Below, piece after piece: positions 26,653-52,128 of a stretch of DNA of 58,727 bases. This DNA is from Oceanihabitans sp. (lineage in GTDB: Bacteria > Bacteroidota > Bacteroidia > Flavobacteriales > Flavobacteriaceae): the NCBI GenBank assembly GCA_049614585.1, contig JBMZDY010000001.1, positions 1 to 58,727 of the forward strand, in the 5' to 3' direction. The position numbers were made by a program, and so were the translations under genes. Within the stretch, counting starts at the first letter, position 1. Each line of letters opens with the position of its first letter. The notes beneath the pieces are model-generated. The model was not told where the DNA came from, ran no database searches, and saw only the letters and a list, made by a program, of their open reading frames with translations.

Positions 26653-26723
26653 CGTTTTTATATATTATTTTCACTTAAAACTCGTTAAATATAAATATAT
26701 TTAGAAGCTTAAGATTTTTGGTT

Positions 26724-29057
26724 ATGATTAAAAAAATTACAATTCTATTCCTTTCACTGTTTCCTTATCTGCAATTTGCTCAAGATTATTCCGATCAATG
26801 GGAAGGGTTATTTTCTTATTACAACATAAAAGATGTTACGTTAAGTACTAATAAAATTACAGCTGCAGCCGAAAATGCAATTTTTAATTATAACACTCTT
26901 ACGCAAGAACGAAATAAATTTTCTACCATAAACGGGCTTTCTGGAGAAACAATATCTGCGGTTCACTATAGCGAAGCATACGAGATTTCTTTAATTGGAT
27001 ACGAAAACGGGTTAATGGAAATAGTTTTCGATAATGGAGATAACACACTTTCTGTTGTAGATATACTTGAAAAACCAACCATACAACCATCTCAAAAAAG
27101 CATTAATCATTTTAACGAACAAGGAGGCATTGTTTATATCGCTACAAATTATGGTATTTCGGTTTTTGATCTTGAACGATTAGAATTTGGAGACTCTTAT
27201 TATATAGGTGACTTAGGAAGCCACGTAAAAGTAAATCAAACCGTAATATATCAAGATTATATTTATGCTGCTTGCGAGAATAGCGCAGGTATAAAAAAAG
27301 CACCAGTAGATAACCCTAATTTAATAGATTATCAAGAATGGACAACTGCAGTTGCAGGTAATTATAAAGCTGTAGAAACTCTAAACGATAGGCTTTTTGT
27401 AGCAAGAACAAACAAGCGTTTTTACGAGTTGAATACCTGGTTGTCGCAATTAGCAATTTATAGTAATTTTATACTAGATGTAAGAGTTGTAGAAGATAAA
27501 TTAATCGTTACAACCAAAAGTGAAACCAACATTTACGACGGCGATTTTAATTTAATAACGCAAATAAATGCTAGCGAAAATATTAATGGACAATTTAATT
27601 GTGCAACCTTCGATTCGGAATATTATTATATAGGAACTTCCGATATTGGATTAATAAAAATTTCCTTTCAAGACCTAGAAACTTACCAAAGCCTTTCTCC
27701 AGAAGGACCTTTATTTAATAACGCATTTTCAATAGAAGTAAATCCAACCAATTTATGGGTTACTTTTGGAGATTACGATTTTGCCTACAATCCTTACCCA
27801 CTACATACCAGAGGGTTTAGCCATTTGCAAAATGAAGAGTGGATTAATGTCTCTAAAGACAGTGTGTTAACTGCAAGAAATTTAAATGCAATAGCTATAA
27901 ACCCACTACAAGAGAATCAAGTGTTTATAAGCGCCTGTATAGATGGTGTTTTAGAAGTAAACGACAATACTGCAACAGTTTTATATAATGCCTCGAACAG
28001 TACCTTAGAACCTCGTGTAATAGGAACTAATAATTTTAGACAAACCGCAGCTGCATTTAGTAATGAAGGTGTTTTATGGACAACAACAGGTAGGTCTTTA
28101 AAACCATTAAATTCTTACGACCCAACAACAGGAGCATGGGCTTCTCATGATTTTTCAGGCATATTACAAGATGTAGACGATGAGTGGGGTTATTGCGATG
28201 TTATTATAGATAATAGTGGGAACAAATGGTTAGGCGGACTTAAAAAAGGGCTTATAGGATATAACGAATCAAACAGTGCAGACAACAAAGTAAGAGCATT
28301 ATATAAAGAAGAAGAGAATATGCCTTCTACTTTTGTTACCGCAATAGCTTTAGATAAAAACAACCAAATGTGGATTGGTACACAACGTGGTATTCGTGTT
28401 TTACGTAATACCGCAAACTTTTTTAGTGCAGCAGAATTACATGCAGACGAAATAATAATTTTAGAGAATGGTGTACCTAGCGAATTGTTATACGAGCAGT
28501 TTGTATCTGGAATTGTAGTAGATGGTTCTAACAACAAATGGATAAGCGTTGTAGGATCTGGCTTGTTTTACTTTTCTGCAGATGCACAAGAAACCATATT
28601 TCATTTTACTACAGAAAATTCCCCATTACCATCCAATAACATAAATAATTTAGAGCTAAACGAATCTAACGGAAAATTATATGTTGCTACCGAAAAAGGA
28701 ATTGTAACCTTTAGCGCTGGAGGTGCTGCGCCTACAGAAACAATTAGCGAAGCTTACGTGTATCCAAACCCAGTACGACCAACATTTAATATTACTCAAG
28801 ATAAAATAAAAATTAAAGATATATCCGAAAATGTAAATATTAAAATTACGGATATTGAAGGGAATTTGGTAGCAGAGGCACAAAGTAATACCAATACCAG
28901 ATATAAAGGTTATAATCTTGAAATTGATGGAGGAATTGCACTTTGGAACGGTAAAAATCTTGCAAATAATGTTGTAGCATCTGGAGTGTATTTAGTTATG
29001 CTTTCCGATTTAGATTCTCTAGACACAAAAGTGATTAAAATTATGGTTGTAAGGTAA
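26724..29057 (+). CDS. porZ: T9SS component PorZ (two beta-propellers plus C-terminal sorting domain)
   Basis: Signal peptide from ATG 26724 (ORF track opens at TTG 26718); propeller repeats (DNSGNKW, DKNNQMWIGT, DGSNNKW, NSPLPSN); CTD VYPNPV...WNGKN...VASGVYLV...KIMVVR; adjacent to recO. Confidence 0.85.
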   Translation: MIKKITILFLSLFPYLQFAQDYSDQWEGLFSYYNIKDVTLSTNKITAAAENAIFNYNTLTQERNKFSTINGLSGETISAVHYSEAYEISLIGYENGLMEIVFDNGDNTLSVVDILEKPTIQPSQKSINHFNEQGGIVYIATNYGISVFDLERLEFGDSYYIGDLGSHVKVNQTVIYQDYIYAACENSAGIKKAPVDNPNLIDYQEWTTAVAGNYKAVETLNDRLFVARTNKRFYELNTWLSQLAIYSNFILDVRVVEDKLIVTTKSETNIYDGDFNLITQINASENINGQFNCATFDSEYYYIGTSDIGLIKISFQDLETYQSLSPEGPLFNNAFSIEVNPTNLWVTFGDYDFAYNPYPLHTRGFSHLQNEEWINVSKDSVLTARNLNAIAINPLQENQVFISACIDGVLEVNDNTATVLYNASNSTLEPRVIGTNNFRQTAAAFSNEGVLWTTTGRSLKPLNSYDPTTGAWASHDFSGILQDVDDEWGYCDVIIDNSGNKWLGGLKKGLIGYNESNSADNKVRALYKEEENMPSTFVTAIALDKNNQMWIGTQRGIRVLRNTANFFSAAELHADEIIILENGVPSELLYEQFVSGIVVDGSNNKWISVVGSGLFYFSADAQETIFHFTTENSPLPSNNINNLELNESNGKLYVATEKGIVTFSAGGAAPTETISEAYVYPNPVRPTFNITQDKIKIKDISENVNIKITDIEGNLVAEAQSNTNTRYKGYNLEIDGGIALWNGKNLANNVVASGVYLVMLSDLDSLDTKVIKIMVVR

Positions 29058-29779
29058 TGCAAGCTTCTACAAAAGCGTTAGTATTATCTACTTTAAAATA
29101 TAGTGACAGCGACCTTATAGTAAAATGTTATACCCAAGAATTTGGCGTTTTAAGCTTTATATTAAAAGGGATTTTAAAACGAAAAAAAGGGAAAATAAAA
29201 ACAGCATATTTTCAATTATTAGCACAATTACAACTTGAAATTGTTTATAAAAAAAACCGCTCTCTTCATAATATTGCCGATGTAAAACTAAATTACCAAT
29301 ACGCTAATTTGCAAACCAACGTGCAAAAAACAGCAGTGCTTATGTTTTTGGCCGAAACTTTAAGTAATGCACTGCAAGAAGAAGAAAAAAACGAATTCTT
29401 GTTTTCCTATATAGAAACAACAATGCAATGGTTAGACCAGCAAAATCAATATGCTAACTTTCATTTATTGTTTTTGCTTAAAATAACTAAATTCTTAGGT
29501 TTTTATCCAGAAACCAAAAATATGCAGTTTTCATATTTTAATTTACAGTCTGGTAATTTTGAAAATTTATCGAATACAATCTATAGTGTTTCGGGGCAAA
29601 ATTTAACACTCTTAAAACAGTTACTAGGCATAAATTTTGATGCACTTTCTACAATTAAAATAAATGCCAAGCAACGACACTCTTTTTTAAGTATGTTATT
29701 GTTATATTTTGAACTACATTTGGGGTCTTTTAAAAAGCCGAAATCGTTAGAAGTATTTACACAAGTTTTTAACACTTAA
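29057..29779 (+). CDS. recO: DNA repair protein RecO
   Basis: KYSDSDLIVKCYTQEFG OB-fold start, LGFYP, C-terminal KSLEV; TAATG overlap with porZ. Confidence 0.9.
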   Translation: MQASTKALVLSTLKYSDSDLIVKCYTQEFGVLSFILKGILKRKKGKIKTAYFQLLAQLQLEIVYKKNRSLHNIADVKLNYQYANLQTNVQKTAVLMFLAETLSNALQEEEKNEFLFSYIETTMQWLDQQNQYANFHLLFLLKITKFLGFYPETKNMQFSYFNLQSGNFENLSNTIYSVSGQNLTLLKQLLGINFDALSTIKINAKQRHSFLSMLLLYFELHLGSFKKPKSLEVFTQVFNT

Positions 29780-29780
29780 G

Positions 29781-32192
29781 ATGAAACAATTTTTAGTATC
29801 TATTATATTTATATTTTGTAGCTATGCCACTTATGCACAGCAAATAACAGTAATAAACAAAGTAACAGGAAATACTATTTCTGGAGTTGCATTATATAAC
29901 CAAAATAAAACCATAAGCAGCACAACTAGTGTCGATGGAGAAGCTAATGTCTCTAACTTTAAGCCCAACGAGCGTATCTATTTTCAGCACCTTTCCTTTA
30001 AAACAAACTCTGTAATTAAATCGCAAATAAAAAAGGATGGAGTTATAATGTTATCTCCAAAAGCTCAAGATTTAGACGAGGTAATTATATCTGCCTCCAA
30101 ATTCAAACAAAGCAAAAGAGATATCCCTCAAAAAATTGTCAATTTTAGTGCAAAAAACATTCAATTAAATAATCCGCAAACAAGTGCAGATTTGTTAGAG
30201 CAAACGGGACAAGTATATGTTCAAAAAAGCCAACTAGGCGGAGGTAGCCCAATGATAAGAGGTTTTTCTACAAACCGATTACTTATTTCGGTGGATGGCG
30301 TACGTATGAATAACGCCATTTTTAGAGGTGGTAATGTACAGAATGTTATAGCAATAGACCCTTTTTCAATTCAAAACACCGAAGTAACTCTAGGTGCTGG
30401 ATCTGTTATTTATGGAAGCGATGCTATTGGAGGTGTTATGAGTTTTTACACAAAAAAACCGCAACTATCTTATACCGATTCTTTGCAATTTAAAGCAAAT
30501 TCTACGTTGCGATATGCTAGTGCTAGTAACGAAAAAACAGGTCAAGTAGACCTTAATTTTGGTTTTAAAAAATGGGGTTTTTATAGCAATGCTAGTTACA
30601 CTTCTTTTGGCGATTTAAGAATGGGAATGCATGGACCAAAAGAATATTTAAGACCAGAATATGCTGGAGTTAATAACGGGGAAGACGTAGTAATTACAAA
30701 TAATAACCCTAGAGTTCAAAAACACACAGGTTATAACCAATTAAACCTTTTGCAAAAAGTTCGCTTTGAACCTAACGACGACTTAAGTTTCGACTTAGGA
30801 TTGTATTATTCTAAAACATCAGATTACCCTAGATACGATAGACTTATACGATATAGAAATGGCACACTTCGGTCTGCACAATGGTACTATGGACCACAAA
30901 AGTGGTTTATGTCTAATTTTGGATTAACAAAATTAAGTAGTCGATCTAATTTATACGACAAAATAAAATTAACTACTGCTTATCAAAACTTTCAAGAAAG
31001 TAGAGTAGATAGAAATTTTAATAGCCCCAATCAAAGAAATAGAGAAGAAAAAGTAGACGCATATTCTATTAATATTGATATGGAAAAAGAACTAAGTGCT
31101 AAAACAGAATTTTTCTATGGTGCAGAGTATATTTTTAACCAAGTATATTCAAAAGCGTTTATAAAAAATATTGACACACAAGAAAGAACTGCATCTATTA
31201 CCAGATACCCAAATAAATCTAATTGGCAATCTGCTGCTGTATATTCTAGTTTAAAATATAAACCTGTTAGTAATTTTGTGTTTCAAACCGGTTTACGATA
31301 TAATTATGTAAGTTATTCTGCTAGTTTTAAAGAAAACAACGAATTTTTAAACTTACCATTTAACAGTACAAAAAATAGCTTTGGCGCATTAACAGGAACT
31401 GCAGGATTAAGTTGGTCGCCAAGTAGTTTTATGCAATGGAAATTAAATGCGTCTACAGCGTTTAGAGCGCCAAATATAGACGATATAGGAAAGGTTTTCG
31501 ATAGCGAACCAGGAGCTGTTGTTGTGCCAAACCAAAATTTAAAACCAGAATATGCTTATGGTGGAGAGCTAGGCTTAAAGTTAGATTTTGATAATAAAGT
31601 GGTGTTAGATATGGCTACCTATTACACCTATTTAGATAATGCTTTGGTACGACGCGATTATACTATTAATGGGGAAAGTGAAATTTTATACGATGGCGAA
31701 TTAAGTCAAGTTCAAGCAATACAAAACGCATCGAAAGCATGGATTTATGGTTTTGAAATTGGACTGCGAATTAATTTTACAAAAGCCTTACAATTCACCA
31801 CACAATACAATATTATTGGCGGAACAGAAGAAGAAGATAATATAGAGGTTCCTGTTAGGCATATTGCACCAAATTTTGGAAACACGCATCTTGTATGGAA
31901 ACATAAAAAATTAACTTTAGATGCTTTTGCCGTTTATAATAACGAGCTCTCTAATAAGCAATTAGCACCTTCCGAAAAAGGAAAAGATTATATCTATGCA
32001 TTAGACCATAATGGTAAGCCTTATGCACCTTCTTGGTACACTTTAAATATAAGAGGTCAATACCAATTATTTAACAGTTGGAGTATTAGTGCAAGCCTAG
32101 AAAACCTTACCGACCAACGTTATAAAACCTATTCGTCTGGAATTGCAGCAGCTGGAAGAAACTTAATAGTAGCTGTAAAATATAGCCTTTAG
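29781..32192 (+). CDS. TonB-dependent receptor
   Basis: Signal peptide, N-terminal extension, LDEVIISAS, plug (SPMIRG, GSVIYGSDAIGGV), FRAP...NQNLKPE, ENLTD, C-terminal VKYSL. Confidence 0.93.
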   Translation: MKQFLVSIIFIFCSYATYAQQITVINKVTGNTISGVALYNQNKTISSTTSVDGEANVSNFKPNERIYFQHLSFKTNSVIKSQIKKDGVIMLSPKAQDLDEVIISASKFKQSKRDIPQKIVNFSAKNIQLNNPQTSADLLEQTGQVYVQKSQLGGGSPMIRGFSTNRLLISVDGVRMNNAIFRGGNVQNVIAIDPFSIQNTEVTLGAGSVIYGSDAIGGVMSFYTKKPQLSYTDSLQFKANSTLRYASASNEKTGQVDLNFGFKKWGFYSNASYTSFGDLRMGMHGPKEYLRPEYAGVNNGEDVVITNNNPRVQKHTGYNQLNLLQKVRFEPNDDLSFDLGLYYSKTSDYPRYDRLIRYRNGTLRSAQWYYGPQKWFMSNFGLTKLSSRSNLYDKIKLTTAYQNFQESRVDRNFNSPNQRNREEKVDAYSINIDMEKELSAKTEFFYGAEYIFNQVYSKAFIKNIDTQERTASITRYPNKSNWQSAAVYSSLKYKPVSNFVFQTGLRYNYVSYSASFKENNEFLNLPFNSTKNSFGALTGTAGLSWSPSSFMQWKLNASTAFRAPNIDDIGKVFDSEPGAVVVPNQNLKPEYAYGGELGLKLDFDNKVVLDMATYYTYLDNALVRRDYTINGESEILYDGELSQVQAIQNASKAWIYGFEIGLRINFTKALQFTTQYNIIGGTEEEDNIEVPVRHIAPNFGNTHLVWKHKKLTLDAFAVYNNELSNKQLAPSEKGKDYIYALDHNGKPYAPSWYTLNIRGQYQLFNSWSISASLENLTDQRYKTYSSGIAAAGRNLIVAVKYSL

Positions 32193-32243
32193 GAATAAAT
32201 TTAAATGCCACGAGTTTACATATATTTTGCGTTGTAGTATTTG

Positions 32244-32251
32244 TATATTTG
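32244..32251 (+). promoter_or_regulatory. -7 promoter element ahead of the hypothetical-bioF-bioD-bioA unit
   Basis: TATATTTG ending 4 nt before the ATG at 32256. Confidence 0.6.
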
Positions 32252-32255: not shown

Positions 32256-32804
32256 ATGAATAATAACCTTCTTGTAGTATCTGAAACTAAAAAGCCCTTT
32301 TGGAAATTAATTTTAGCAGCTCTATGTTTTACAGCTATTTTCGGAATTATTTTAGCTTCGGTATTATATAATTTTTTTATACTTAATAGTTTTAAATCTA
32401 TTGCAAACCTTACAGAAATATTAATTTATTTAGCTGCTATTGGTATTGGTTTAAGCTCGCACAAAAAGGTATATATTAATTTAAAACAATCTAAATTTAG
32501 ACCTACAATAGAAGTAGGACCTATAAAAGTAGGGAAATGGGTAACCATTAAAAACTACGAATATGTATCGGTATTTCATCAATTACTAGTAAATGGTAGT
32601 TATGTGTTTGAAGTTAACTTATGGTATAACAATAACAAACATTTTAAGCTTTACGAAAAAAATAGTTTTAATGAAGCAATGGCACTTGGTTACGAAATTT
32701 CCGAAGAGTTAAATATAGAATTATTAGATGCAACTGTACCCAATAATTACACTTGGGTAGATAAAGAAGAATTGAAGGAAAAACATAAAAATCATGCTTC
32801 CTAA
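32256..32804 (+). CDS. Hypothetical membrane protein (2 TM helices plus a soluble, possibly PH-like domain)
   Basis: Two hydrophobic segments followed by a beta-rich domain; overlaps the bioF start by 11 nt. Confidence 0.7.
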   Translation: MNNNLLVVSETKKPFWKLILAALCFTAIFGIILASVLYNFFILNSFKSIANLTEILIYLAAIGIGLSSHKKVYINLKQSKFRPTIEVGPIKVGKWVTIKNYEYVSVFHQLLVNGSYVFEVNLWYNNNKHFKLYEKNSFNEAMALGYEISEELNIELLDATVPNNYTWVDKEELKEKHKNHAS

Positions 32805-33948
32805 AAAACTGCAACAAAAAATAGAATATCGAAAAGAACAGAACACTTTTCGCGAATTAGGAGTGCCAAATAACCTCATCGATTTTTCATCAAACGATTA
32901 TTTAGGGCTTTCAAAAAACGAAACTATTTTTAATGCAGCACATCAATTTCTTATAGCAAATAAAATCAAAGAAAACGGTGCTACTGGATCTAGACTATTA
33001 ACCGGAAACCATAAACTTTATCAATTAGTAGAACAGCAATTGTGTGCATTTCATAATAGCGAAGCAGCATTGGTTTATAATTCTGGTTTCATGGCAAATC
33101 TTGGTTTTTTTGCAAGCATACCACAACGAGGAGATGTTATTATTTACGATACTTATTGCCATGCTTCTATTCGCGACGGAATAAAACTAGCAAATGCAAA
33201 ATCGTATAAATTTAAGCATAACGATTTAGAAGATTTAAACCTCCAATTGCAGCGATTTGCTTCTAGCTTAGAAAAGGAAGCCGTTATATATGTAGTTACA
33301 GAATCTGTTTTTTCTATGGATGGCGATTCGCCAAAACTAAAAGAGCTAGTAGCATTAACCCAAAAACACCAAGCTCATTTAATTGTAGACGAAGCACATG
33401 CTGTTGGAGTAAAGGGATTAAATGGAGCTGGAATTATTTCAGAATTACAATTAGAGAATAAAATATTTGCAAGAATAATAACCTTTGGTAAAGCAATGGG
33501 TTGCCACGGAGCAGCAATTTTAGGAAGTAAAAAACTAAAAGCATTTTTAATTAATTTTTCGCGACCATTTATTTACACAACAGCCTTGCCACCTCATGCA
33601 TTAGCAACTATTAATTGTGTCTATACAGAGCTTAATAATCCTACAAAAGATACGATACATACTTTACACAAAAACATCCTTTTTTTTAAAGCAGAACTTA
33701 TTAAACTAAAACTGCAAGAGTATTTTATAGAAAGTGATGCAGCAATACAATGTTGCGTAATTCCAGGCAATAAAAATGTAAAAACAATAGCAAACAAATT
33801 ACAACAAAACGGTTTTAACGTTAAACCTATTTTATCGCCAACAGTGCCAGAAGGAGAAGAACGCCTACGTTTTTGTATACATAGTTATAATACCGAAAAA
33901 GAAATAACAAAAGTATTACAATTGTTAACTACTTTTGTTAAACTATAA
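32794..33948 (+). CDS. bioF: 8-amino-7-oxononanoate synthase
   Basis: FSSNDYLGL, GSRLLTG, HASIRDG, ESVFSMDGD, DEAHA and TFGKAMG (PLP Lys). Confidence 0.95.
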   Translation: MLPKKLQQKIEYRKEQNTFRELGVPNNLIDFSSNDYLGLSKNETIFNAAHQFLIANKIKENGATGSRLLTGNHKLYQLVEQQLCAFHNSEAALVYNSGFMANLGFFASIPQRGDVIIYDTYCHASIRDGIKLANAKSYKFKHNDLEDLNLQLQRFASSLEKEAVIYVVTESVFSMDGDSPKLKELVALTQKHQAHLIVDEAHAVGVKGLNGAGIISELQLENKIFARIITFGKAMGCHGAAILGSKKLKAFLINFSRPFIYTTALPPHALATINCVYTELNNPTKDTIHTLHKNILFFKAELIKLKLQEYFIESDAAIQCCVIPGNKNVKTIANKLQQNGFNVKPILSPTVPEGEERLRFCIHSYNTEKEITKVLQLLTTFVKL

Positions 33949-33982
33949 CAAAGGAATATTTTTAACTATTAAATAAAATTAT

Positions 33983-34591
33983 TTGAAAACCTATTACATA
34001 ACAGGAACCTCTACCGAAGTTGGTAAAACTATAGCTTCAGCAATTATTGTTGAAGCATTACAAGCAGATTATTGGAAACCTATACAAGCTGGGGAATTAG
34101 AAAATTGCGACACAAAAAAAGTTAAAAAATTAATAAGCAATAACAAATCGCAATTTTACGATAATAGCTATGCTTTAAAAACTCCTATGAGTCCGCATGC
34201 AGCTGCCGAAATAGAAAACATTACCATAGATTTAAAAAAAATACAAAGACCCAAAACAAAAAACCATTTGGTTATAGAAGGAGCAGGAGGGCTTTTAGTA
34301 CCACTAAATAATAAAAACACAATACTAGATTTAATTAAACCAGAATACCATGTAGTGGTGGTTTCTAGGCATTATTTAGGAAGCATTAATCACACATTGC
34401 TAACGGTAAATTTTCTAAAAGAAAAAGGCTTTAAGGTAAGTATTATTTTTAGTGGTAAAGAACATAAAACTACAGAGCAAATTATAGTAAAAATGACAAA
34501 AGTGCCTGTAATTGGAAGAATAGAAGAAGAACCTTTTATAGATAAAAATGTAGTAAAAGAATATGCCGAAATTTTCAAAAATAATTTATGA
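33983..34591 (+). CDS. bioD: Dethiobiotin synthase
   Basis: TTG start; GTSTEVGKT, WKPIQAG, SPHAAA, IEGAGG and LGSINHT motifs. Confidence 0.96.
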   Translation: MKTYYITGTSTEVGKTIASAIIVEALQADYWKPIQAGELENCDTKKVKKLISNNKSQFYDNSYALKTPMSPHAAAEIENITIDLKKIQRPKTKNHLVIEGAGGLLVPLNNKNTILDLIKPEYHVVVVSRHYLGSINHTLLTVNFLKEKGFKVSIIFSGKEHKTTEQIIVKMTKVPVIGRIEEEPFIDKNVVKEYAEIFKNNL

Positions 34592-35853
34592 ATCTCCAAG
34601 AACGCGATAAAAAACACCTTTGGCATCCATTAACACAACACCAATTGCACCCAAATCACTTAGCAATTGTAAAAGCAAAAGACGCATTATTGTTTGATGA
34701 AAATGGAAAAGAATATATAGACGGGATTGCCTCTTGGTACACCTGTATGTACGGGCATAGTAATGCCTATATTACAAAACAAGTAGCCAAGCAAATGCAA
34801 AAGCTAGACCATGTAGTTTTTGCAGGTTTTACGCATGAACCAGCTATTCAACTTTCCGAGAAATTAATAGAAATACTACCTAGTGAGCAAGAAAAAATAT
34901 TCTTTAGCGATAATGGTTCCACAAGTGTGGACGTAGCAATAAAAATGGCATTACAATACCATTTTAATACTGGTAAAAAACGCAGTAAAATTATAGCTCT
35001 TGAAGATGGCTTTCACGGCGATACTTTTGGAGCAATGAGCGTTTCTGGCTTGTCTGTTTATAATGGGCCATTCGAAGATTTTTTTATAGATGTAGCAAGA
35101 ATTGCAGTACCTACAAAAGCGAATTTTAGTTTAGTAAAAGAACAATTTATTAATTTATTAAAAACCGAAAATGTAGCAGCTTTTATTTACGAACCCTTAG
35201 TACAAGGAGCCGCAGCAATGAAAATGTATGATGCTGCCTTGTTAAACGAGTTACTTACTATTGCAAAACAACATCAAGTTTTAACCATAGCAGACGAGGT
35301 TATGACAGGTTTTGGTAAAACCGGAAAAAACTTTGCATCTTCTTATTTAGAAACCCAACCAGATATAATTTGTTTGGCAAAATCGCTAACCGCAGGAATT
35401 GCACCAATGGCAATTACTAGTTGTACCCAAAAAGTGTACAATGCATTTTTAAGCGACGAACTAGGGAAAGGTTTTTTTCATGGGCATACCTATTCGGCAA
35501 ATCCAATTGCATGTTCCGCAGCTTTAGCAGGAATAGAGCTGTTGCAATCTAAAGAATTTCAAGATAATATAAGTAGAATTACAAAAGCCCACCAAGCATT
35601 TAATACGCATATAAAAAACCACCCTAAAGTTTTGCAAACAAGGCAATTAGGTGTTATTTATGCCCTAGATCTAAATGTAAAAATGGAACGCTATGGCGAT
35701 TTGCGTTATAAATTGTTTCATTTTTTTATGGAAAATGGCGTTTGCTTGCGCCCTTTAGGAAATACCATATATATTTTAGCACCTTATGTAATTACTAATA
35801 AACAATTAGAAAAAGTATATCAAGTAATTGAAGATGCACTAGAAATGCTATAA
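34588..35853 (+). CDS. bioA: Adenosylmethionine-8-amino-7-oxononanoate aminotransferase
   Basis: LWHPLTQ, SDNGSTSVDVAIKMA, FHGDTFGAMS, ADEVMTGFG and HGHTYSANP motifs. Confidence 0.96.
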   Translation: MNLQERDKKHLWHPLTQHQLHPNHLAIVKAKDALLFDENGKEYIDGIASWYTCMYGHSNAYITKQVAKQMQKLDHVVFAGFTHEPAIQLSEKLIEILPSEQEKIFFSDNGSTSVDVAIKMALQYHFNTGKKRSKIIALEDGFHGDTFGAMSVSGLSVYNGPFEDFFIDVARIAVPTKANFSLVKEQFINLLKTENVAAFIYEPLVQGAAAMKMYDAALLNELLTIAKQHQVLTIADEVMTGFGKTGKNFASSYLETQPDIICLAKSLTAGIAPMAITSCTQKVYNAFLSDELGKGFFHGHTYSANPIACSAALAGIELLQSKEFQDNISRITKAHQAFNTHIKNHPKVLQTRQLGVIYALDLNVKMERYGDLRYKLFHFFMENGVCLRPLGNTIYILAPYVITNKQLEKVYQVIEDALEML

Positions 35854-35858
35854 ATTTG
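35851..35858 (+). promoter_or_regulatory. Possible internal -7 promoter for the ketosynthase, overlapping the bioA stop codon
   Basis: TAAATTTG followed by CA; its TAA is the bioA stop. Confidence 0.45.
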
Positions 35859-35918
35859 CAATTCAAAAAAACCAAACTAAATATTTAAAAGTGAGGTTGC
35901 TATTTCTGTAAAATATAA

Positions 35919-37061
35919 ATGAAACAAATAATCTCTATAACTGCTATCCAATCTATTTCTGCACTAGGGAATTCTGCTGAAGAAATATGGAATAACTATA
36001 AAAACGAGCAACCTTATTTTGTAACCAGAGCAGATAGTTTGGTAGCCAAACTAAATACAGAAACAGAAAAAGAAATTGAAAATTTAAGAGCATCTAATTC
36101 AAAATACAAAGCATTAGATAATTCTGTTTTATATGCTATTTATACCTCTAGAAAAGCAATAGAAAAAGCCAATTGGAAAGCATCAAGTAATTTTGGAATA
36201 AACATTGGTTCATCAAGAGGAGCTACAAAACTATTCGAAAAATTTCATCAAGATTTTTTAAATAGAAAAAAAACAGAACCCTTAAGTTCTCCAACAACAA
36301 CTCTTGGTAACATATCTTCTTGGGTTGCACACGATTTACAAACAAAAGGGCCAGAAATAAGTCACTCCATAACCTGCTCTACCGCATTACACGCAATGTT
36401 AAACGGAATTGCTTGGATAAACTCAGGAATGGCAGACACCTTTTTGGTTGGTGGTAGCGAATCGCCATTAACCCCATTTACCATCGCGCAAATGCAAGCC
36501 TTAAAAATATATACAAAAGGTATAACCAATAAATATCCTTGTCGTGCATTAGATTTAGAAAAAACCAAGAATACTATGGTTTTAGGCGAAGGGGCAGCAA
36601 TGGCTTGTTTAGAAAGTGGCGAAAAAAACAATGCACTTGCAAAAATAGTTGGCATAGGTTACGCAACCGAAGTATTAGAGCACAATGCATCTTTATCTAC
36701 AAATGCTGTGTGTTTTCAGCATGCCATGCAAATGGCAATTGGCGATTTAAACGTAGAGGAAATAGATGTAATTGTAACCCATACTCCAGGAACAGTAAAA
36801 GGAGATATTGCAGAGTATAATGCTATTAAAAAAGTGTTTAATAACAACATTCCAACATTAACTACAAACAAGTGGAAACTTGGGCATACCTTTGGTGCGT
36901 CTGGTATGTTAAATGTAGAAATGGCTGTATTAATGCTTCAAAAAAACGAATTTATTCCTATTCCATATATAGATAGTAAAAAACCAAAACGCATTAAAAA
37001 CATTCTAGTAAATGCTGTTGGTTTTGGGGGGAATGCGGTTTCTATTCTTCTTACAAAATAG
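35919..37061 (+). CDS. FabF/FabB-type beta-ketoacyl synthase embedded in the biotin locus
   Basis: SITCSTA (Cys), VTHTPGT (His), KLGHTFGASG (His), LGEGAA and NAVGFGGN. Confidence 0.88.
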   Translation: MKQIISITAIQSISALGNSAEEIWNNYKNEQPYFVTRADSLVAKLNTETEKEIENLRASNSKYKALDNSVLYAIYTSRKAIEKANWKASSNFGINIGSSRGATKLFEKFHQDFLNRKKTEPLSSPTTTLGNISSWVAHDLQTKGPEISHSITCSTALHAMLNGIAWINSGMADTFLVGGSESPLTPFTIAQMQALKIYTKGITNKYPCRALDLEKTKNTMVLGEGAAMACLESGEKNNALAKIVGIGYATEVLEHNASLSTNAVCFQHAMQMAIGDLNVEEIDVIVTHTPGTVKGDIAEYNAIKKVFNNNIPTLTTNKWKLGHTFGASGMLNVEMAVLMLQKNEFIPIPYIDSKKPKRIKNILVNAVGFGGNAVSILLTK

Positions 37062-37087
37062 TTATATTTACCATAAATTACAGCATT

Positions 37088-38056
37088 ATGAAAAGCCCAA
37101 TACATTTATTTGGTATACTATTTTTGTTATTATCTGCAACACTATTTGCACAGCAGGATCCAGAAATATTTAACAAGTTCGAATCGAAATTTTATACTAT
37201 AGATGGTTATAAAATTAATGTTGAGGTTTTAGGCCAAGGCGATCCAATATTCTTTCTGCCAGGAGGTCCAGGAAACTCACACGATTATATGCAAGGTAAT
37301 TTTGGACAGTATTACAAAACCAATACAGTTGTGTTTTTCGATTGGCTTGGAAGAGGGAAAAGTGATAATGCGAAAACCGCTTCCGAGTACTCTGTAGAAG
37401 CAGATGTCGAGCTTATAGAGAAACTAAGAAAACTATTAAAGTTCCATAAAATTTCTTTAGTTGGGCATTCTTACGGCACAGTACCTGCACAAGCCTACGC
37501 AATTAAATATAAAAACAATGTCGATAAAATGGTACTTATAAATGGATTTCATTCTGGCGCTATGTGGCAAGCAAATTGCGATAGTTACAACCATTATGCA
37601 AAAACGCATTTCCCCGAAAAATGGAAACAGGTAGATTCCCTTCGAAAATTAGGATATTTGTCTAGTCAGGAGCCATTAAAAACGGTTTATGGCAACTTTC
37701 CTACCAAGTATATATATTACCACAACACCAAACTAAAGCAAAATTCGCCAAAAGAAAAATATAGAGGTTGGGCTGGAGATGTATATACTACAATTATAGG
37801 AAAAGACGGCGATTTTGATGTGTCGGGAAGTATGATAAATCAAGATTATAGACAACAACTAAAAAATATAAATGCTAAAACTTTAATTGTTGCTGGTAGG
37901 TACGATGGTGTCTCTACTCCAGAATTTGCAGTGCAATACCAAAAATTTATGCCACAAGCACAGTTTGAAATGTTTGAGCAAAGTGGTCATAATCCATATT
38001 TAGAAGAGCCAGAAAAATTTTATAGGCTTTTTGATGCTTTTTTCAACATTAAATAA
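37088..38056 (+). CDS. Secreted alpha/beta hydrolase (proline iminopeptidase/S33-like)
   Basis: Signal peptide (...SATLFA-QQD); PGGPG, GHSYG (Ser), GRYDG (Asp) and SGHNP (His). Confidence 0.85.
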   Translation: MKSPIHLFGILFLLLSATLFAQQDPEIFNKFESKFYTIDGYKINVEVLGQGDPIFFLPGGPGNSHDYMQGNFGQYYKTNTVVFFDWLGRGKSDNAKTASEYSVEADVELIEKLRKLLKFHKISLVGHSYGTVPAQAYAIKYKNNVDKMVLINGFHSGAMWQANCDSYNHYAKTHFPEKWKQVDSLRKLGYLSSQEPLKTVYGNFPTKYIYYHNTKLKQNSPKEKYRGWAGDVYTTIIGKDGDFDVSGSMINQDYRQQLKNINAKTLIVAGRYDGVSTPEFAVQYQKFMPQAQFEMFEQSGHNPYLEEPEKFYRLFDAFFNIK

Positions 38057-38088
38057 GTTATTTTTGAATAAATTTTGAAACGATTTTT

Positions 38089-39183
38089 ATGAGCGAGATA
38101 AAACACAATTGGACAAAAGAAGAAATTCTTGATATATACAACAAACCATTAATGGAGTTGCTTTACCAAGCAGCAACAGTACATCGTTTACACCACGACC
38201 CAAACACCGTACAGGTTAGTACTTTACTATCTATAAAAACAGGTGGTTGTCCAGAAGATTGTGGTTATTGCCCACAAGCAGCAAGATATCATACCAATGT
38301 AGAAGGTAACGACTTAATGAGTGTGCAACAAGTAAAAGCACAAGCATTACGTGCAAAAGCCTCTGGAAGCTCACGCGTTTGTATGGGCGCTGCATGGCGA
38401 AATGTAAAAGACGGAGAAGAATTTGATGATGTACTAGAAATGGTACGTACTATAAACAAGCTCGATATGGAAGTTTGTTGTACACTTGGCATGATTACCG
38501 AAAACCAAGCACAACGTTTAGCAGAAGCAGGTTTATATGCTTACAACCATAATTTAGACTCCTCTGAAGAATACTATAAAGAAGTAATATCTACTAGAGG
38601 TTACGAAGACAGATTACAAACCATAGATAATGTACGCAAAACAAACGTAACCGTTTGCAGTGGTGGTATTATAGGAATGGGCGAAAAAATAGAAGACAGA
38701 GCAGGAATGCTTGTAGCACTTTCTACATTAAACCCGCAACCAGAATCGGTACCAATTAATGCATTAGTAGCTGTAGAAGGAACACCACTAGAAGAGCAAG
38801 AACCAGTTTCTATTTGGGAAATGATTAGAATGGTAGCAACAACTAGAATAATTATGCCAGAAACACAAGTGCGATTAAGTGCTGGTCGTAGAGATATGAG
38901 TCGCGAAGGACAAGCCATGTGTTTCTTTGCAGGAGCAAACTCTATTTTTGCAGGAGATAAACTTTTAACAACTCCAAATCCAGATGTAAATGAGGATATG
39001 GAAATGTTTAAAATGCTAGGTTTAAACCCACAAAAACCATTCATTAAAAAAATGCAACCAGAAACCATTGAGGCAGCAGATTCTAAATTTGAAGCTTTAG
39101 GTGAAAAACCAAAATGGACAAGACCAGAACATAAAATAGATCGTAACGAAGAAGCGAAACAAAAAGCGAAAGTGCTTAAATAA
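38089..39183 (+). CDS. bioB: Biotin synthase
   Basis: CPEDCGYC radical SAM motif, YNHNLD, CSGGIIGMGE, ESVPIN and GANSIFAGDKLLT. Confidence 0.98.
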   Translation: MSEIKHNWTKEEILDIYNKPLMELLYQAATVHRLHHDPNTVQVSTLLSIKTGGCPEDCGYCPQAARYHTNVEGNDLMSVQQVKAQALRAKASGSSRVCMGAAWRNVKDGEEFDDVLEMVRTINKLDMEVCCTLGMITENQAQRLAEAGLYAYNHNLDSSEEYYKEVISTRGYEDRLQTIDNVRKTNVTVCSGGIIGMGEKIEDRAGMLVALSTLNPQPESVPINALVAVEGTPLEEQEPVSIWEMIRMVATTRIIMPETQVRLSAGRRDMSREGQAMCFFAGANSIFAGDKLLTTPNPDVNEDMEMFKMLGLNPQKPFIKKMQPETIEAADSKFEALGEKPKWTRPEHKIDRNEEAKQKAKVLK

Positions 39184-39284
39184 GTTAGCACTTTAGCATT
39201 TATTTAAAAGTAAAACTTACGTGTTTAAACTATTTTTACTGTAACTACGTTTTATTAATTTGGTACTTAAAAATAAAGTTAATA

Positions 39285-40148
39285 TTGGCACTAAACCTTC
39301 AAGATATACCTCGTGTAAAATCTTTAAATAAAAAAGATTTTATAGAAAATTACTTTAAACCACAAAAACCTGTGGTTATCGAGCAATGTATTACCGATTG
39401 GCCAGCATATACCAAATGGAATTTAGAGTATATAAAAAGTATTGCAGGAGATAAAACAGTACCACTTTACGACGATAGACCAGTAGATTTTAAAGACGGT
39501 TTTAATCAGCCACATGCTACCATGAAAATGAGTGCGTATATCGATTTATTAAAATCGAAACCCACTAACTTTCGTATTTTTTTATGGAATATTGTAAAGG
39601 AAGTGCCGCAGCTTCAAAACGATTTTTTCTTTCCAGATTTTGGTATTAGGTTACTTAAAAGTTTACCAATGCTTTTCTTTGGCGGAAAAAATGCACATAC
39701 CTTTATGCATTACGATATTGATTTAGCAAATATTTTTCATTTTCATTTCGAAGGCAAAAAACAGTGTATTCTTTTCGACCAAAAACAAAACAAATATTTA
39801 TATAAAATACCACACTCTCTAATTGTAAGAGAAGATATAGATTTTATAAATCCAGATTTTAAAAAATGGCCAGCATTACAATATGCAAAAGGGTATTCCA
39901 CTACTTTAAAACATGGCGAAGTATTATATATTCCAGAAGGTTATTGGCATTACATGAAGTATCTAACACCAGGCTTTTCCATGAGCTTACGTGCACTAGC
40001 AAGAAAACCAAAAAACTTAGCAAGAGCTATTTATAATATAGGTGTTATGCGCCATTTCGATAATACCATGAGGCGTTTAAAAGGGCAAAGCTGGATTAAC
40101 TGGAAAAACAAACAAGCCATACGTAGAACCCATAAAAATTTTAGCTAA
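39285..40148 (+). CDS. JmjC/cupin-8 family Fe(II)/2-oxoglutarate oxygenase
   Basis: TTG start; KPVVI...WPAYTKW JmjN-like start, HYD (HxD), GKK, GEVLYIPEGYWH (distal His). Confidence 0.87.
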   Translation: MALNLQDIPRVKSLNKKDFIENYFKPQKPVVIEQCITDWPAYTKWNLEYIKSIAGDKTVPLYDDRPVDFKDGFNQPHATMKMSAYIDLLKSKPTNFRIFLWNIVKEVPQLQNDFFFPDFGIRLLKSLPMLFFGGKNAHTFMHYDIDLANIFHFHFEGKKQCILFDQKQNKYLYKIPHSLIVREDIDFINPDFKKWPALQYAKGYSTTLKHGEVLYIPEGYWHYMKYLTPGFSMSLRALARKPKNLARAIYNIGVMRHFDNTMRRLKGQSWINWKNKQAIRRTHKNFS

Positions 40149-41271: not shown

Positions 41272-44200
41272 ATGTTTAATAAATATTTTTTCTCGTTATT
41301 TGGCTGTATATGTTTTGTTCTTACTGGGTTTGGGCAGACAACAGTTTCCTATGATTTCTCTGCAACTGGAGCATCAACAAGTGGTAGTTTAGATGCAAAT
41401 ATTAGTTTTACTTCTCATAAAAATAGCGGAACTGCCACCCCAGTGATTAATAGTGGGCAATTAAGATTATATCAAAATGCAACTAAAGGAGGCTCTATTA
41501 AAATAGTACCTTCTAATGGTGCAATTATTACTAGTGTTGTTGTAAATGCTTCGACAAGAACTGGACCAGCTGGATATACCGTTGATGGTAGTTTCGTAGC
41601 AAACTTGAGCGGAGGTTCTACTTATACAATGAGTAGTTTAAATGCAAGTACGGAAGTTGAATTTTATCAAAGGGATAGTAATAGTAGTAATAGAATTTAT
41701 GTAGATGATTTTACTGTAACTTATACAATGCCTACATCAGGCCCAACGATAACAACAAGCACATCGTCTTTAACAGGACTAGATTATATAGAAGGATCTG
41801 GCCCGTCGGTAGAGCAGTCGTATTCTGTTTCTGCAGCCAACTTAACACCAGCTACTGGAAATATTACGGTAACAGCTCCTGGAAATTTTTCCATTTCAAA
41901 AACAGCGGGAGGGACTTATACAAATTCATTGACCTTTGCATATGCTGGAGGAACGCTTTCTGCATCTAATGTATTTGTTCGTTTAAATAGTGGATTGGTA
42001 GTAGGCACCTATGGCCCGTTAAATGTTACAAATACAGGAGGAGGAGCAACGACACAAAATGTAGCTGTAAGTGGAGAAGTTACGCCACTTTGTACAACTC
42101 CAAGTCCAGCTACTAATTTAGTATTATCTAATGCTACTAGTAGTACTATAGATGTCGCTTTTACAGCATCTGGCGCAGATAATTATTTAGTTGTACAAAG
42201 TACTTCTTCTACTTTAAGTGTTAACCCTACAGACACAAATTCGTATACCGTTGGAAACAGTTTAGGAGGAGGAACAGTGGTTTTTAATGGTTCTGCAAGC
42301 TCATTTACCAATAGTGGATTAAGCGCAAATACTACCTATTATTATTTTGTGTTTGCCTATAATAATGCAAACTGTTCTGGTGGGCCACTTTATAGTGTAT
42401 CTATTACCGATAATGAAACCACTTTAAATGGGCCTTGTTTAAGCGAAAATTTTCAAGATAGTAATGGCTGGTCAGATCATAGCTACGGAAATTGGACGCA
42501 AATAGCCAATAATGGTACTTGGATAGCAAATGGTATTTATGCTGGTGCTGGTAGACGTATACAAATGAACGATGTTGGCGACTGGTTAGAGTTTCCGATG
42601 GTAGATAATCCAGTATCGTTAAATTATGATTATGCCTTAAGTAGTTCGCAAACAGGAACCAATCAAATGCAAGTACAGTATTGGGATGGAAGCACTTGGG
42701 TTGTAGCAGCTACGCATACCTCGTTAGGAACAACCTTTATAAATTATTCGGCAGATTTAAGTGCGGTTACAGCTCAAACCAATGTAAGATTACGCCTATT
42801 TCGATCGGCAGATAACAGAACCGCTTATATTGATAATATTGAAGTTTTTTGTGGAGTTCCAGGACCTGAAATTCAAGTAGAAGGTAATAATATTGAAATT
42901 ACAGACGGCGATGCAACACCAAGTACAATAGACGATACACGTTTTGGTAATGTACCCATTGTAAGTGGCTCTGAAGCGCATACATTTTTTATAAAAAACA
43001 CTGGAGGTACTCCATTAACTATTAATAGTATTACTAGTGATAATGCCGAATTTACGGTTAGTGGTACAACAAACACGTCTATAGCAGGAGGTGGTGATGC
43101 GTCTTTTACCGTAACTTTTGATCCAACTACCCTAGGTACACGTACTGCTATAATTACAATTGATAATGATGATACCGACGAAAATCCATATACGTTTAGC
43201 ATAAGCGGAAACGGTACAAACAGCAACCTTTCAACTATAGTAGATAATACCAACTATAGCACAACGGCTCCTGAATTTAATATTACCCCACAGTATATTA
43301 ATTATATAGATGGCACGTCGACTTCAACAGGTAAATTTATTCCGTTTAAAATTAAAATTTTAGATGGAGGAATAAGTGCATCGGATGCCGATAGTTATAG
43401 TACTACCCTAACCGATTTAAAATTAACAGTTCAGGATTTAAGCAATACCAACCAATTAGCCATGATTAAGACGGCCGTTTTAACAGGAACAGGTGGCGCC
43501 GTAATTGCAACGGCAAGTAAAGTTGGTAACGAATTGGTGTTTTCGGGTATGAGTGGCGCTTCGGTAACGGCAAGTGATGATGGTCAAAAAATACTTCATA
43601 TTCGTGCTTCGTTTGATGAAAATCAAGTTATTGATAACACCAAACTAATCTTTAAAATTAGTGAAGCTACTGCAGATGCTAGTGGGTCTGCTTTTGCCAA
43701 TACAGATGCAGGAGGTGCCGAATCAGATTCAAATAATAATAATAGAAATACACTAAACGTTTTAGGCGATCGTTTGCAATTTACCACACAACCTAGCAAC
43801 ACCTCAATAAGCGATAATATGCTACCAGCTCCAGTGGTTGCAGTTACAGATATTTATGGCAATGCCGATTTAGATATAAATTCTGGAAATATTAGCATGA
43901 CTTCTACAGGTACGCCAAATGCCCAGCCATCTGCGGTAATTACAAATGCGCAAGCGACATTTACGGCTGTAAATCATTCGGCATCTGGAACAGGGTTTCG
44001 CTTAACGGCAAGCTATTCTGGATGGAGTGTTACTAGTAATTTGTTTAATATTAACGATACCGCCAATGGTAGTTATAGAACTACAGCTTCTGGTACCTGG
44101 TTAAGTAATCAAGCTTCACCAGCGATATGGGAACGTTTTAATGGCTCTACTTGGGCAGCTTCAAACTCACCCAGTTACTCGACAACTAATCTGGTATATA

Positions 44201-47200
44201 TTAGAGACGGACACAATATTAATACTGGAGGGTCTTGGGGGAATTCTGTGCATTTAATTATTAATAATGGCGGAACATTAAACATAAACCATCAAGGAAC
44301 AGCGGGAAATTTATCGATTCAAGATGGCGGTAATGTAAGTATTAATGCTAGTTTAACTATTAACTCTAGCGGGATTTTAGAAGTTTTTGACGGCGGAAAC
44401 CTAACGCTTAATTTTAAATACGGAAACCCTAATTCGTCGCTTTGGAATGGTACTGAAAAGTTTCATCCCGATTCTAATTTAATTTTTAACGATTGGGATG
44501 CCGACGATGATATTATTGATAATAACACAAGTATTACAACCAATACGTTTAATGGATATACCGCAATTTTTGGAAATATTTTAATTGATTTTCAAGCTAA
44601 TTTGAGTAGCTCTGATGATATTACATTTTTAAATTCTGGTGTTTTAATAAATATGGCACATGGCGATTTAATTTTTAGAACAAACGATTTTGGACCGCCT
44701 TCCAATTGTCCTTCGGGAGTTAATAAATTTAATATTGCAACAACAGGAAGTGTAAATTCTGGTATTGGAGGCGATTTTATTGTAGAAGATACTTTTACGT
44801 TTGTAGCATGTTCTAATATTATTCAATTTAAAATATCGGGAACACTCGTTTTTACAATTAAAGGAAATATGTCTTTGGATCAAGCAACAACGCGATTAGG
44901 GGCAGGAACAAATCCAAATACAACTTTAAATATTGAAGGAAATCTTGAAGTCCTTTCTGGAGCATTTTTCGATATGCAAGCAACCAGTTCGGCAAATAAT
45001 AGTCAGACCATTAATTTGCATGGTAACTTATACGCCTCTAATAGTGGTAGGTTAAGTTGTTCTAATAATAGCAGCTCAAATGTGGTAAATAACAATTTTA
45101 ATTTTGTAGGCACAAGCATTCAAACTATTGATGTGGCTTCAACAAGTGCTTCCGAAAACCAAGCTATCACGTTTAATGTAGAAAGTGGCGCTTCTGTAAA
45201 GCAAATTAATAGAGATTTTGAATTGGGAACATACAGTTCTTTAAATATTAAAGGAGGCGGAACATATGACTTTGGTTTTGATGGAAACACACCACTTAAT
45301 GTTGTAACCTCAGGGACTCAAAACACAACCGAATTCAAATCCTTTGATGCAAGTACATTAATAATTACATCTATCGATGGTATTAGTAAAACCAACAGTA
45401 CGAGTAATGTAAAAACTTCTGCTTACCTACGTACATTTAGTCAAAATGCTACATTTTGGTATGTTGGGAAACAGGATCAAATTACAGGAAACGGGCTCAC
45501 AACATTATCTTCGGGAAGGGTCATTATTTGCGATTTAATAGATAATGATACACGATTATTCTTGTCTAACCACACCGGTATTACTAACAATACCATTGCA
45601 AATCCCTTAGGAGGGGCATTAGATATTCGTGTTGGACAATTTATTGAAACAGAAACCGAATATATTACAGGAAGTACTGGACGGTTAATTATGGCAGACG
45701 GGACACTGTATCAAATACCAAAACCATCGGCAAATTCTTCAGATTTAATACCAAGACTAAATAACACGACAATTTATTATCAACTTTATGGCGATTCTAC
45801 CATCGAGCTTAATGCAAATGGAAGTCAACGGTTAAGAGGTTTACGCGATTATAGAAATTTAACATTTTCCAACCAAACCAATGTCACATTATCTAATGCT
45901 ATTGCAAATATAGACGGCACTATTACTACTGAAAACAATGCAATTGTTGATGTTGAAAACAAGAATTTTGGAGGCACTACAACAAATTTAAATATGAAAG
46001 ATAATTCCCGATATATTACTGCAGGATCTGACGTTGAGCCCGATGCAGGTGGTACATATTCATTAGGAATAGACACCGTAATAGAATTTAACAGAAACAC
46101 GAGTTTAGAGAAAATTAGATTAGCAAACCCTATTCCTAATTATGCAAACGTTATTGTTTCTGGATCTCATGTAGGAACAGAATCGGATAATGTAGGTATT
46201 AAATTTCAGGCCAATGGAAATTTTGAAGTTACAAATACGGGTGTTTTTCTACATAATAATATTAGTGGGTTTTCAGGTGATTCCGGCACAGCAATAGATC
46301 AAACCAATACGCCTAATATTATACTAGAAAATGGTTCAACTATTGAGTATGCTCGAAATAATAGCGATTCACAAACCATTACTGCTTTTTCTCCAGAATA
46401 TAAAAATGTAATTATTTCTGGATCTGGCACAAAAATACTTGGGCATCCTACAGATATTCTTATTGGCGAAAATTTAACCTTAAACGCAAGTACTTTGAAA
46501 GTAAATACTGATGAAATACTTACAGTTGATGAAAGTGTAAACCGATTATTTAGTGCTGTATTTGATATTGAAAACTCAGGTAGTCTCATTCAAATTAACG
46601 ATGCGAGCATAAACGTAGGTAGCATTAACATGAAACGTACAGCAAGTATAAAAAACCTAGATTATGTGTATTGGTCGTCGCCAGTAGAAGACTTTACGGT
46701 AAACAATATTTGGACAACAAATCGTATCTACAAATGGGGGCCAACAGCAAGCAATGCTAACGGAACAGAAGGTAATTGGCTAAATGCTTCTGGCAACATA
46801 ATGACTAAAGGTTTGGGCTATATATTAAGAGCACCAAATGGTACTAGTACAGCTCCAGTAGATTATACCACTACATTTTTAGGTGTGCCGCAAAACGGTA
46901 TTGTAGAAATAGGTGTAGCTCGTGGAAACGACCTCCCAGCAGACAACGATGACGATAATTGGAATTTAATAGGAAATCCTTACCCTTCGGCAATTTCGGC
47001 AGATGCCCTGTTATTCGACCACACAAGTATTATTAAAGGATGGATAAAATTATGGACACATGGCGATGCACCAAATAGCACATTTAATAATACGTTTTAC
47101 CAAGATTTTGTAAATAATTACGACGTACAAGATTATATAACCTATAATTATATGGGGCCTTCTATGGGGCCAGAAACTTTTACGGGTTATATAGCAGCAG

Positions 47201-48051: not shown

Positions 48052-48080
48052 GACCTACTAGGTTTTTTGCCTAGTAGGTC
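48052..48080. repeat. Perfect 11-bp-stem hairpin (terminator or REP-like element)
   Basis: GACCTACTAGG-ttttttg-CCTAGTAGGTC, between the surface-protein gene and umuC. Confidence 0.7.
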
Positions 48081-48096
48081 TTTGTATATTTATACC

Positions 48097-51600: not shown

Positions 51601-52128
51601 CTACTCGTTCTTATTTTTTAGTTTATTAATTATTAAACTATCGGTAGTTTTTTTAAGGTTTACCACTTGTGTAACGTTTTGGTTAGGTATGGTAATCGAT
51701 AGTACATAGTGCGCTATTTTCCATGTATTGTTTTCCATTATTAACACACCAGAACCTCTACAAATTTCCATTTGGGTGTCTAGCAACTCGTCGAACCAAG
51801 CAATTTTATTATCGTTAGAAAGGTAAATATTTCTTTCTATTGCTGTAAAACTCCATGCTTTCCCTTTGTCGAAATAAGGTTTAGAAAATGCTTTAAAAGC
51901 TTTGTTTTGCCAGTTTTCGGTAGCATCTGTACCAAGAAAAACACCTTCTTTAGTCATTAAATTAAAATATGCATCAAAATTAGCATTTGCAGCAGCTTGA
52001 TGCCAAGCATCTAGGTTTTTACTAATTTCTTTTTTAGCTTCTAAAGGTGAAATATTCTGCTTTATTTCTTCCTTTTTAGTACAAGAAAGGCAAGTTGCTA
52101 ATAGAAAAAATAAAGTTATATTTTTCAT
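51601..52128 (-). CDS. NTF2/SnoaL-like lipoprotein
   Basis: Lipobox CLSC; LDAWHQAAA, FLGTD, AWFDELL and WKIAHY. Confidence 0.82.
   Translation of the reverse strand: MKNITLFFLLATCLSCTKKEEIKQNISPLEAKKEISKNLDAWHQAAANANFDAYFNLMTKEGVFLGTDATENWQNKAFKAFSKPYFDKGKAWSFTAIERNIYLSNDNKIAWFDELLDTQMEICRGSGVLIMENNTWKIAHYVLSITIPNQNVTQVVNLKKTTDSLIINKLKNKNE

Follow-up and report, generated by a model that had tools for sequence, protein, structure and literature searches.

How bacteria obtain the seven-carbon arm of biotin is a live question; BioZ (2020–21) and BioE (2025) each filled a similar gap. It is raised here by a locus in a 58,727-nucleotide stretch of Oceanihabitans sp. (GenBank assembly GCA_049614585.1, contig JBMZDY010000001.1, positions 1 to 58,727 of the forward strand; this whole stretch is called the window below), in which bioF, bioD, bioA and bioB share a strand with the gene for a FabF-fold ketosynthase (KS). 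An earlier note on this DNA had taken KS for a functional analogue of BioZ from the FabF branch, and this reading is supported by the co-inheritance of KS with the biotin genes reported here; KS very probably supplies the pimeloyl precursor for flavobacterial biotin. Judging from the genomes compared, most marine and freshwater flavobacteria with biotin genes also carry this diverged KS, with an arginine in its normally hydrophobic pocket, and it likely builds the seven-carbon arm; 69.3% of Flavobacteria, which rank with the leading producers of biotin in the sea, have bioF/A/D/B (PMC9561691). The bio operon, ordinary in appearance, holds a strong candidate, open to direct testing, for a precursor enzyme not described before, and the analysis narrows the question to one gene and one residue.

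Biotin locus and inheritance of the ketosynthase

The locus consists of seven open reading frames (ORFs).

32794..33948, + strand: bioF, 8-amino-7-oxononanoate synthase (best model TIGR00858, 340 bits, below the cut-off of 426; assigned by context)
33983..34591, + strand: bioD, dethiobiotin synthase (TIGR00347, 124 bits, cut-off 83)
34588..35853, + strand: bioA, diaminopelargonic acid (DAPA) aminotransferase (TIGR00508, 535 bits, cut-off 405)
35919..37061, + strand: KS, biotin-linked FabF-fold ketosynthase of 380 residues (PF00109 and PF02801), the proposed pimeloyl-precursor synthase
37088..38056, + strand: α/β hydrolase, proline-iminopeptidase-like (best model TIGR01250, 139 bits; BioH 39 bits against a cut-off of 207)
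38089..39183, + strand: bioB, biotin synthase (TIGR00433, 404 bits, cut-off 225)
39285..40148, + strand: Cupin_8/JmjC protein (PF13621)

These coordinates agree with the order bioF-bioD-bioA-KS-hydrolase-bioB-JmjC described earlier, all on the + strand and closely spaced (gaps of 34, −4, 65, 26, 32 and 101 nt). The absence of known pimelate-supply genes, likewise claimed before, held in a search of the whole host assembly (2.29 Mb in 401 contigs, 82.9% complete; the window is contig C1). The best matches to BioC and BioH reached 58 and 61 bits against cut-offs of 185 and 207, with none passing, and BioG, BioW (PF03744), P450/BioI and BioE were not found in this 82.9%-complete assembly. Two of the four FabH-like genes of the host were compared with solved structures, and both resemble FabH far more closely than BioZ. 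The host also has a canonical-looking FabF, on contig C25, next to a gene for acyl carrier protein (ACP). Since the host assembly is incomplete, the claim that a route is absent rests mainly on relatives; the searches for BioG, BioH, BioI and BioZ concern the host genome. BioE was not found in 50 genomes with KS, nor BioW in the 60 genomes searched, these 50 included, and the best BioC match in 49 KS genomes was 77 bits against the cut-off of 185, so that none of these alternatives stands alongside KS in the genomes screened. The BioE query was identified by its operon context and by a Glu/His spacing of 27-3-69-30-3, as in CpBioE (PMC12915131).

The distribution of KS follows that of the biotin genes, as the earlier note's proposal implies. 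Among 401 Flavobacteriaceae genomes, KS and bioD occur together in 250 and are both missing in 148; bioD accompanies KS in 250 of 250 cases, and only three genomes have bioD without KS. One of these (G014) has a BioC match over the cut-off, the next (G532) has a bioE-F-D-B-A operon with a BioL-like gene, and the last (G648) has an orphan bioD in a decayed remnant, with no bioB in the genome and no bioF or bioA at the bioD locus. Of 61 Flavobacteriales genomes sampled, 28 carry KS, 33 bioB and 32 bioD, and each of the 28 has both bioB and bioD. The four with bioD and no KS are G042 and G058, with bioE-F-D-B-A and a BioL-like regulator, G014, with BioC, and G045, with BioC and BioG. A phylum-wide sample of 351 genomes gave 24 KS matches, 22 of them new, and bioD was present in all 22; 17 of the 327 KS-negative genomes were checked for bioD and six were positive.

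Altogether seven genomes that bear BioE or BioC have no KS (G014, G042, G045, G058, G093, G327 and G532), and BioE and KS were never found together in the genomes searched. The lack of KS in genomes that have BioE or BioC is as expected if one replaces the other at the precursor step. At least six genera (g1, g13, g49, g50, g55 and g206) contain both genomes with KS and genomes without it, which points to repeated joint loss of KS and the bio genes; in one genome of the host's own genus (G009), bioB is retained and KS has been lost together with bioF, bioD and bioA at the same site.

The neighbourhoods of KS in other genomes are similarly composed. The fetched flanks include at least one bio gene in 32 of the 33 named loci, in 67 of the 80 metagenome loci and in 23 of the 29 metagenome loci with long flanks, and in four distant KS genomes (34–45% identity) bioF, bioD or bioA adjoins KS or lies a few genes away; in G030, G040 and G057, KS stands apart from the bio genes that these genomes possess. 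Clustering of the neighbours in 141 KS loci returned only bio genes, recX, JmjC and DUF2007 as common. The same 141 loci contained no ACP gene, no FabZ-like gene and two distant short-chain reductases, with queries that did find the host paralogues. A solitary KS among housekeeping genes was also seen on six long metagenome contigs (L165, L181, L205, L221, L203 and L187); these lineages have no close genome in the 401-genome sample, the best match being 57% to L181.

Ketosynthase protein and its acyl pocket

KS lies outside the FabF equivalog, scoring 149.5 bits on the fabF model TIGR03150 against a cut-off of 493.75, and it has the thiolase fold, Cys-His-His triad, lysine and GFGG motif of the 3-oxoacyl-ACP synthase (KAS) I/II (FabF/FabB) class. 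The motifs singled out in the earlier note are all present in the gene (GSSRG at residues 97–101, SITCST at 150–155 and THTPGT at 287–292, for which HAPGT is the usual form in the clade), and the triad is indeed kept, with C153, H288 and H323 aligned with FabF. Where covered, C153, H288, K318, H323 and F369 are invariant both in 197 close sequences and in 150 representatives of 50%-identity clusters, whereas the first Thr of the HGTST motif of FabF is Pro in 146 of the 149 covering representatives. The AlphaFold model (mean predicted local distance difference test score, pLDDT, 90; predicted template-modelling score, pTM, 0.92) matches FabF with a template-modelling (TM) score of 0.89, a Z of about 51 and a root-mean-square deviation of 2.2 over 372 residues, at an identity of about 25%.

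KS thus shares with FabF the fold, the catalytic C/H/H/K residues and the GFGG gate; the two differ in the acyl pocket. In FabF, I108 and F202 form a gate at C7–C8 of the bound chain (review, PMC9006962), and alignments indicate that this hydrophobic back gate is absent from KS, which has Arg100 and Met192 in its place. The arginine of GSSRG, which the earlier note speculated might bind the free carboxylate, aligns with the sole I/F difference between Bacillus subtilis FabF and its I108F mutant, and it is kept in 197 of 197 close sequences and in all 148 covering cluster representatives. Along the pocket, Gly-Ile, Val, Ile, Ala and Gly-Phe of FabF are replaced by Ser-Arg (S99, R100), Ser (S124), Thr (T128), Thr (T152) and Gln-Met (Q191, M192) in KS. 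I108 and F202 apart, these positions (S99, S124, T128, T152 and Q191) are taken to line the pocket by analogy with FabF structures.

The 155 members of the KS clade form a single group apart from the five other ketosynthases of the host genome (stem 0.74, support 0.76), and the contrast drawn earlier with the pigment ketosynthases of the window is reflected in this separate grouping. Named relatives are mostly Flavobacteriaceae, with Zobellia, Cellulophaga and Maribacter species among the carriers of KS, and among the matches of a search of the ESM Atlas only Bacteroidota KS clusters appeared; the model of AmcF, a KS-fold acyltransferase, is among the weak matches of KS. By source name, members are also found in Polyangiaceae and Acidobacteria (P0269 and P0261), with the G-S-x-R-G motif kept.

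Two-part matches to KS in five genomes trace to an in-frame loop inserted near residue 207 of an intact ORF and not to broken genes; long in-frame insertions near residues 200–207 were seen in G467, G474 and G679. An apparent fusion of KS to a bio gene in G390 was rejected, the 588-codon open frame being explained by a low-complexity repeat insertion in the N-terminal part of KS. A search for fusions among proteins of 701–2000 residues gave one match, P0294, which was set aside as a probable chimeric gene call, and this single-match outcome is weak evidence for the absence of fusions; the record itself is a UvrA-named protein of 1285 residues from the sea slug Elysia marginata, with KS at 59% identity, and probably represents bacterial DNA in an animal assembly.

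Proposed condensation and its alternatives

Both plausible routes to the arm would have to extend a free dicarboxylate from C5 to C7 by condensation, for which the KS pocket appears suited, and KS probably performs this step. In the scheme favoured here, the glutaryl group would load onto C153, R100 and the nearby Ser, Thr and Gln side chains would hold the free carboxylate of this group, and a single decarboxylative condensation of the glutaryl thioester with malonyl-ACP would give 3-oxopimeloyl-ACP, the reaction of BioZ carried out by a FabF fold. Housekeeping FabG, FabZ and enoyl reductase would then complete pimeloyl-ACP for BioF, and the primer, glutaryl-coenzyme A (CoA), would come from lysine or tryptophan catabolism. 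The scheme as a whole, with KS as the condensing enzyme and catabolic glutaryl-CoA as its primer, is about an even chance. A BioZ-like single step is favoured because the cluster contains no dedicated ACP or reductive genes and because Escherichia coli enzymes finish the BioZ product, FabG, FabA and FabI turning it into pimeloyl-ACP in vitro (PMC7645780).

The comparison with BioZ of the α-proteobacteria (PMC7645780, PMC8024396, PMC12625853) extends beyond the reaction. BioZ is likewise a biotin-dedicated ketosynthase in place of BioC/BioH, the proposed condensation of a glutaryl group with malonyl-ACP is the same, the end of the pocket is polar, and KS, too, accompanies bio genes in the absence of other pimelate routes. 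BioZ, however, is of the KAS III/FabH type with a Cys-His-Asn triad, whereas KS is of the KAS I/II type with Cys-His-His and has no ACP_syn_III domain; the sequence and fold matches listed for KS include no BioZ structure. The activity of BioZ has been demonstrated, whereas that of KS is proposed. By membership KS is neither BioZ nor FabF, and by analogy it likely works like BioZ. In the bioF/D/A/B operons of related Bacteroidota, the position of KS is taken by the BioE–BioL route (PMC12704756, PMC12915131); BioE, a diiron oxygenase acting by cleavage of long acyl chains, is unrelated to KS in protein and chemistry.

The BioE papers (PMC12704756, PMC12915131) name four pimelate routes and, in the parts searched, do not mention the KS gene. 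No paper naming a flavobacterial pimelate-precursor route was found, and the published full texts searched, which leave aside most subscription papers and supplements, held nothing on this KS clade; the available parts of PMC9909488, PMC7813871, PMC12448291 and PMC11089781 added nothing on it. If the proposal is true, ketosynthases that accept dicarboxylates evolved independently from the FabH and FabF branches, the KS gene would flag de novo biotin synthesis in metagenomic data, and KS might offer a single-gene part for making biotin or diacids.

Several observations weigh against this reading. The genome samples overlap and are not additive, and the genomes are kin, so that the counts overstate independence; the screens for BioC, BioE and BioW cover 49–50 KS genomes, and the set of 250 as far as it overlaps with these. 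No bio gene lies near KS in 13 of the 80 metagenome loci, six of them among the 29 with long flanks, nor on a 4-kb contig of 69% GC that carries a KS gene (L156:1949-3319). Four Bacteroidota that carry bioB and bioD, in bioB-F-D-A operons (G076 and G101) or dispersed (G061 and G066), had neither a clade KS nor a detectable BioC, BioE or BioW; the absence of known genes, taken alone, does not therefore require KS, and these genomes point to a further unexplained precursor route (loci L126, L128, L124 and L125). What is said of the pocket's geometry comes from aligned sequences and not from distances in the model. As for the primer, a glutaryl-CoA dehydrogenase-like gene was found in 47 of 50 KS genomes, but 18 of 20 controls without bioD have one too, and a gene so nearly universal in the controls does not favour glutaryl-CoA; it was not found in the KS genomes G012 (99% complete), G030 and G046. 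FabF-type enzymes, moreover, normally take ACP-bound primers. Glutaryl-ACP has not been seen in nature (PMC7645780), and in a BioZ complex two serines hold the carboxylate and Arg147 is dispensable (PMC12625853), an earlier docking having named Ser84, Arg147 and Ser287 (PMC8024396).

The usual preference for ACP-bound primers speaks for a different use of the same enzyme, in which KS would start from an unmethylated malonyl-ACP and lengthen it twice, from C3 to C5 and then to C7, relying on housekeeping reductive enzymes and on no dedicated ACP, FabG or FabZ. A single repurposed FabF would then make the whole pimeloyl chain, with no methyl mask, catabolic primer or dedicated partners, and we hold this as a tentative second possibility, less likely than the glutaryl-CoA scheme. 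It would accord with the polar changes beside the cysteine (T152 for Ala and S99 for Gly) and with the three of 50 KS genomes that have no detectable glutaryl-CoA dehydrogenase. A precedent, for which a route of this kind has been proposed, is the bio cluster of Desulfovibrio vulgaris, which includes a FabF-annotated ketosynthase, DVU2563, and no bioC, bioH or bioW (PMC545781, PMC10102598), and which transposon data show to be required without biotin (PMC10102598). That cluster, to which KS is likened by cluster description and which is reported from a few anaerobic phyla, nevertheless has its own ACP, a FabG-like gene, two FabZ-like genes and a nitroreductase, whereas the flavobacterial KS stands alone, its 141 loci being without the specialised ACP and dehydratase that Desulfovibrio has. 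Iteration would also oblige host enzymes to accept free-acid C5 intermediates, and BioZ with malonyl-CoA as primer gave no product (PMC7645780). If true, it would make a one-gene precursor pathway in about six in ten Flavobacteriaceae species, spread to other phyla.

Returning to the single condensation, the remaining alternatives assign KS another task or none in precursor supply. KS-fold acyltransferases exist, as the weak match to AmcF recalls, and the replacement of Thr by Pro in the HGTST motif implies a change on the pantetheine/malonyl side; KS might accordingly be a pimeloyl or glutaryl CoA–ACP transacylase, or shorten a longer dicarboxylic 3-oxoacyl thioester, but this seems unlikely, as the decarboxylation residues H288, H323, K318 and F369, which a simple transferase could do without, are invariant where covered. 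Slightly less probable still is that KS is co-inherited as a late-step helper or lipid enzyme, with pimelate coming from an unrecognised gene. The four Bacteroidota that have bioB and bioD with neither KS nor a known route, and the solitary KS loci, are compatible with such a bystander, whereas the lack of KS in the seven BioE or BioC genomes fits substitution of the precursor step, bioB was kept in G009 when KS was lost with bioF, bioD and bioA, and no genome among the 401 has KS only. That the JmjC oxygenase supplies pimelate by BioI/BioE-like cleavage, or the hydrolase by acting as a BioH-like esterase, is very improbable. Both belong to the same run of + strand genes, and JmjC lies near KS in 24 of 33 named loci; yet 18 of the 29 genomes lacking bioD have a match to JmjC and 12 of the 28 KS genomes gave none, so that its presence is uncoupled from the biotin genes and it was rejected as the cleaving oxygenase. 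The hydrolase, far below the BioH cut-off, has a homologue in one of 113 loci (one of 33 named and none of 80 metagenome loci; none of 27 other short loci), persists in G009 despite the loss of KS, bioF, bioD and bioA, and looks exported, its N-terminus resembling a signal peptide by eye; no BioC that would make a methyl ester was found in the host assembly either, and a role of the hydrolase as a BioH analogue was rejected. The hydrolase is a local insertion, and both genes, which the earlier note had included in its span, are passengers outside the pathway, neither tracking the biotin genes.

Neighbouring genes and other features

At the sites of biotin-gene loss in G009 and G648, a gene for a TonB-dependent receptor stands beside JmjC (L032:8753-12132 and L250:11476-14899, respectively), in G009 directly 5′ of the retained bioB. 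Its best match is BtuB-like, far below the cut-off, and in both genomes it is accompanied by a MocR regulator 46–47% identical to the BioL-like gene. The receptor is also present in four of five further bio-negative genomes (G001, G003, G008 and G350), adjoining JmjC in three, and had no match in the 141 KS loci; it is a candidate importer of biotin or dethiobiotin. An ORF of the DUF2007 family, absent from the host locus, lies between bioF and bioD in relatives (for example L050:5718-6119; 43 of 141 KS loci) and survives in G009 and G648 without KS. The KS gene of L156 stands beside genes for a membrane protein and, judged by eye, a Cys/Met-metabolism-like protein.

Two further features precede bioF in the host.

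32226..32251, + strand: possible Bacteroidota-type promoter just 5′ of the first gene (weak; suggestive by position alone)
32256..32804, + strand: ORF of 182 residues, function not assigned, overlapping bioF by 11 nt (no Pfam or NCBIfam match)

The 182-residue ORF has homologues in four of 33 named and six of 80 metagenome loci and is an occasional neighbour, outside the core of the locus. The consensus used for the promoter, TTTG...TAnnTTTG, is the one we take to be of Bacteroidota type; it occurs 11 times in the window, with 13.7 expected by chance, and promoter and terminator scans of the window gave matches at or below chance level. The Pfam scan left out the ORFs at 26718-32192 and 41272-48030 and eight at 51601-58259, which the genome-wide family searches include.

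Elsewhere in the window, positions 926-24062 hold a pigment-type type II cluster, presumably of the flexirubin/aryl-polyene type, with four ketosynthase-domain genes, a FabH-like gene, two ACPs and FabG, together with an O-methyltransferase, an aromatic amino acid lyase, an ABC transporter and a halogenase-like flavoprotein. Positions 41272-48030 encode a protein of 2252 residues that looks secreted, followed by a UmuC/DinB-family polymerase at 48067-49353.

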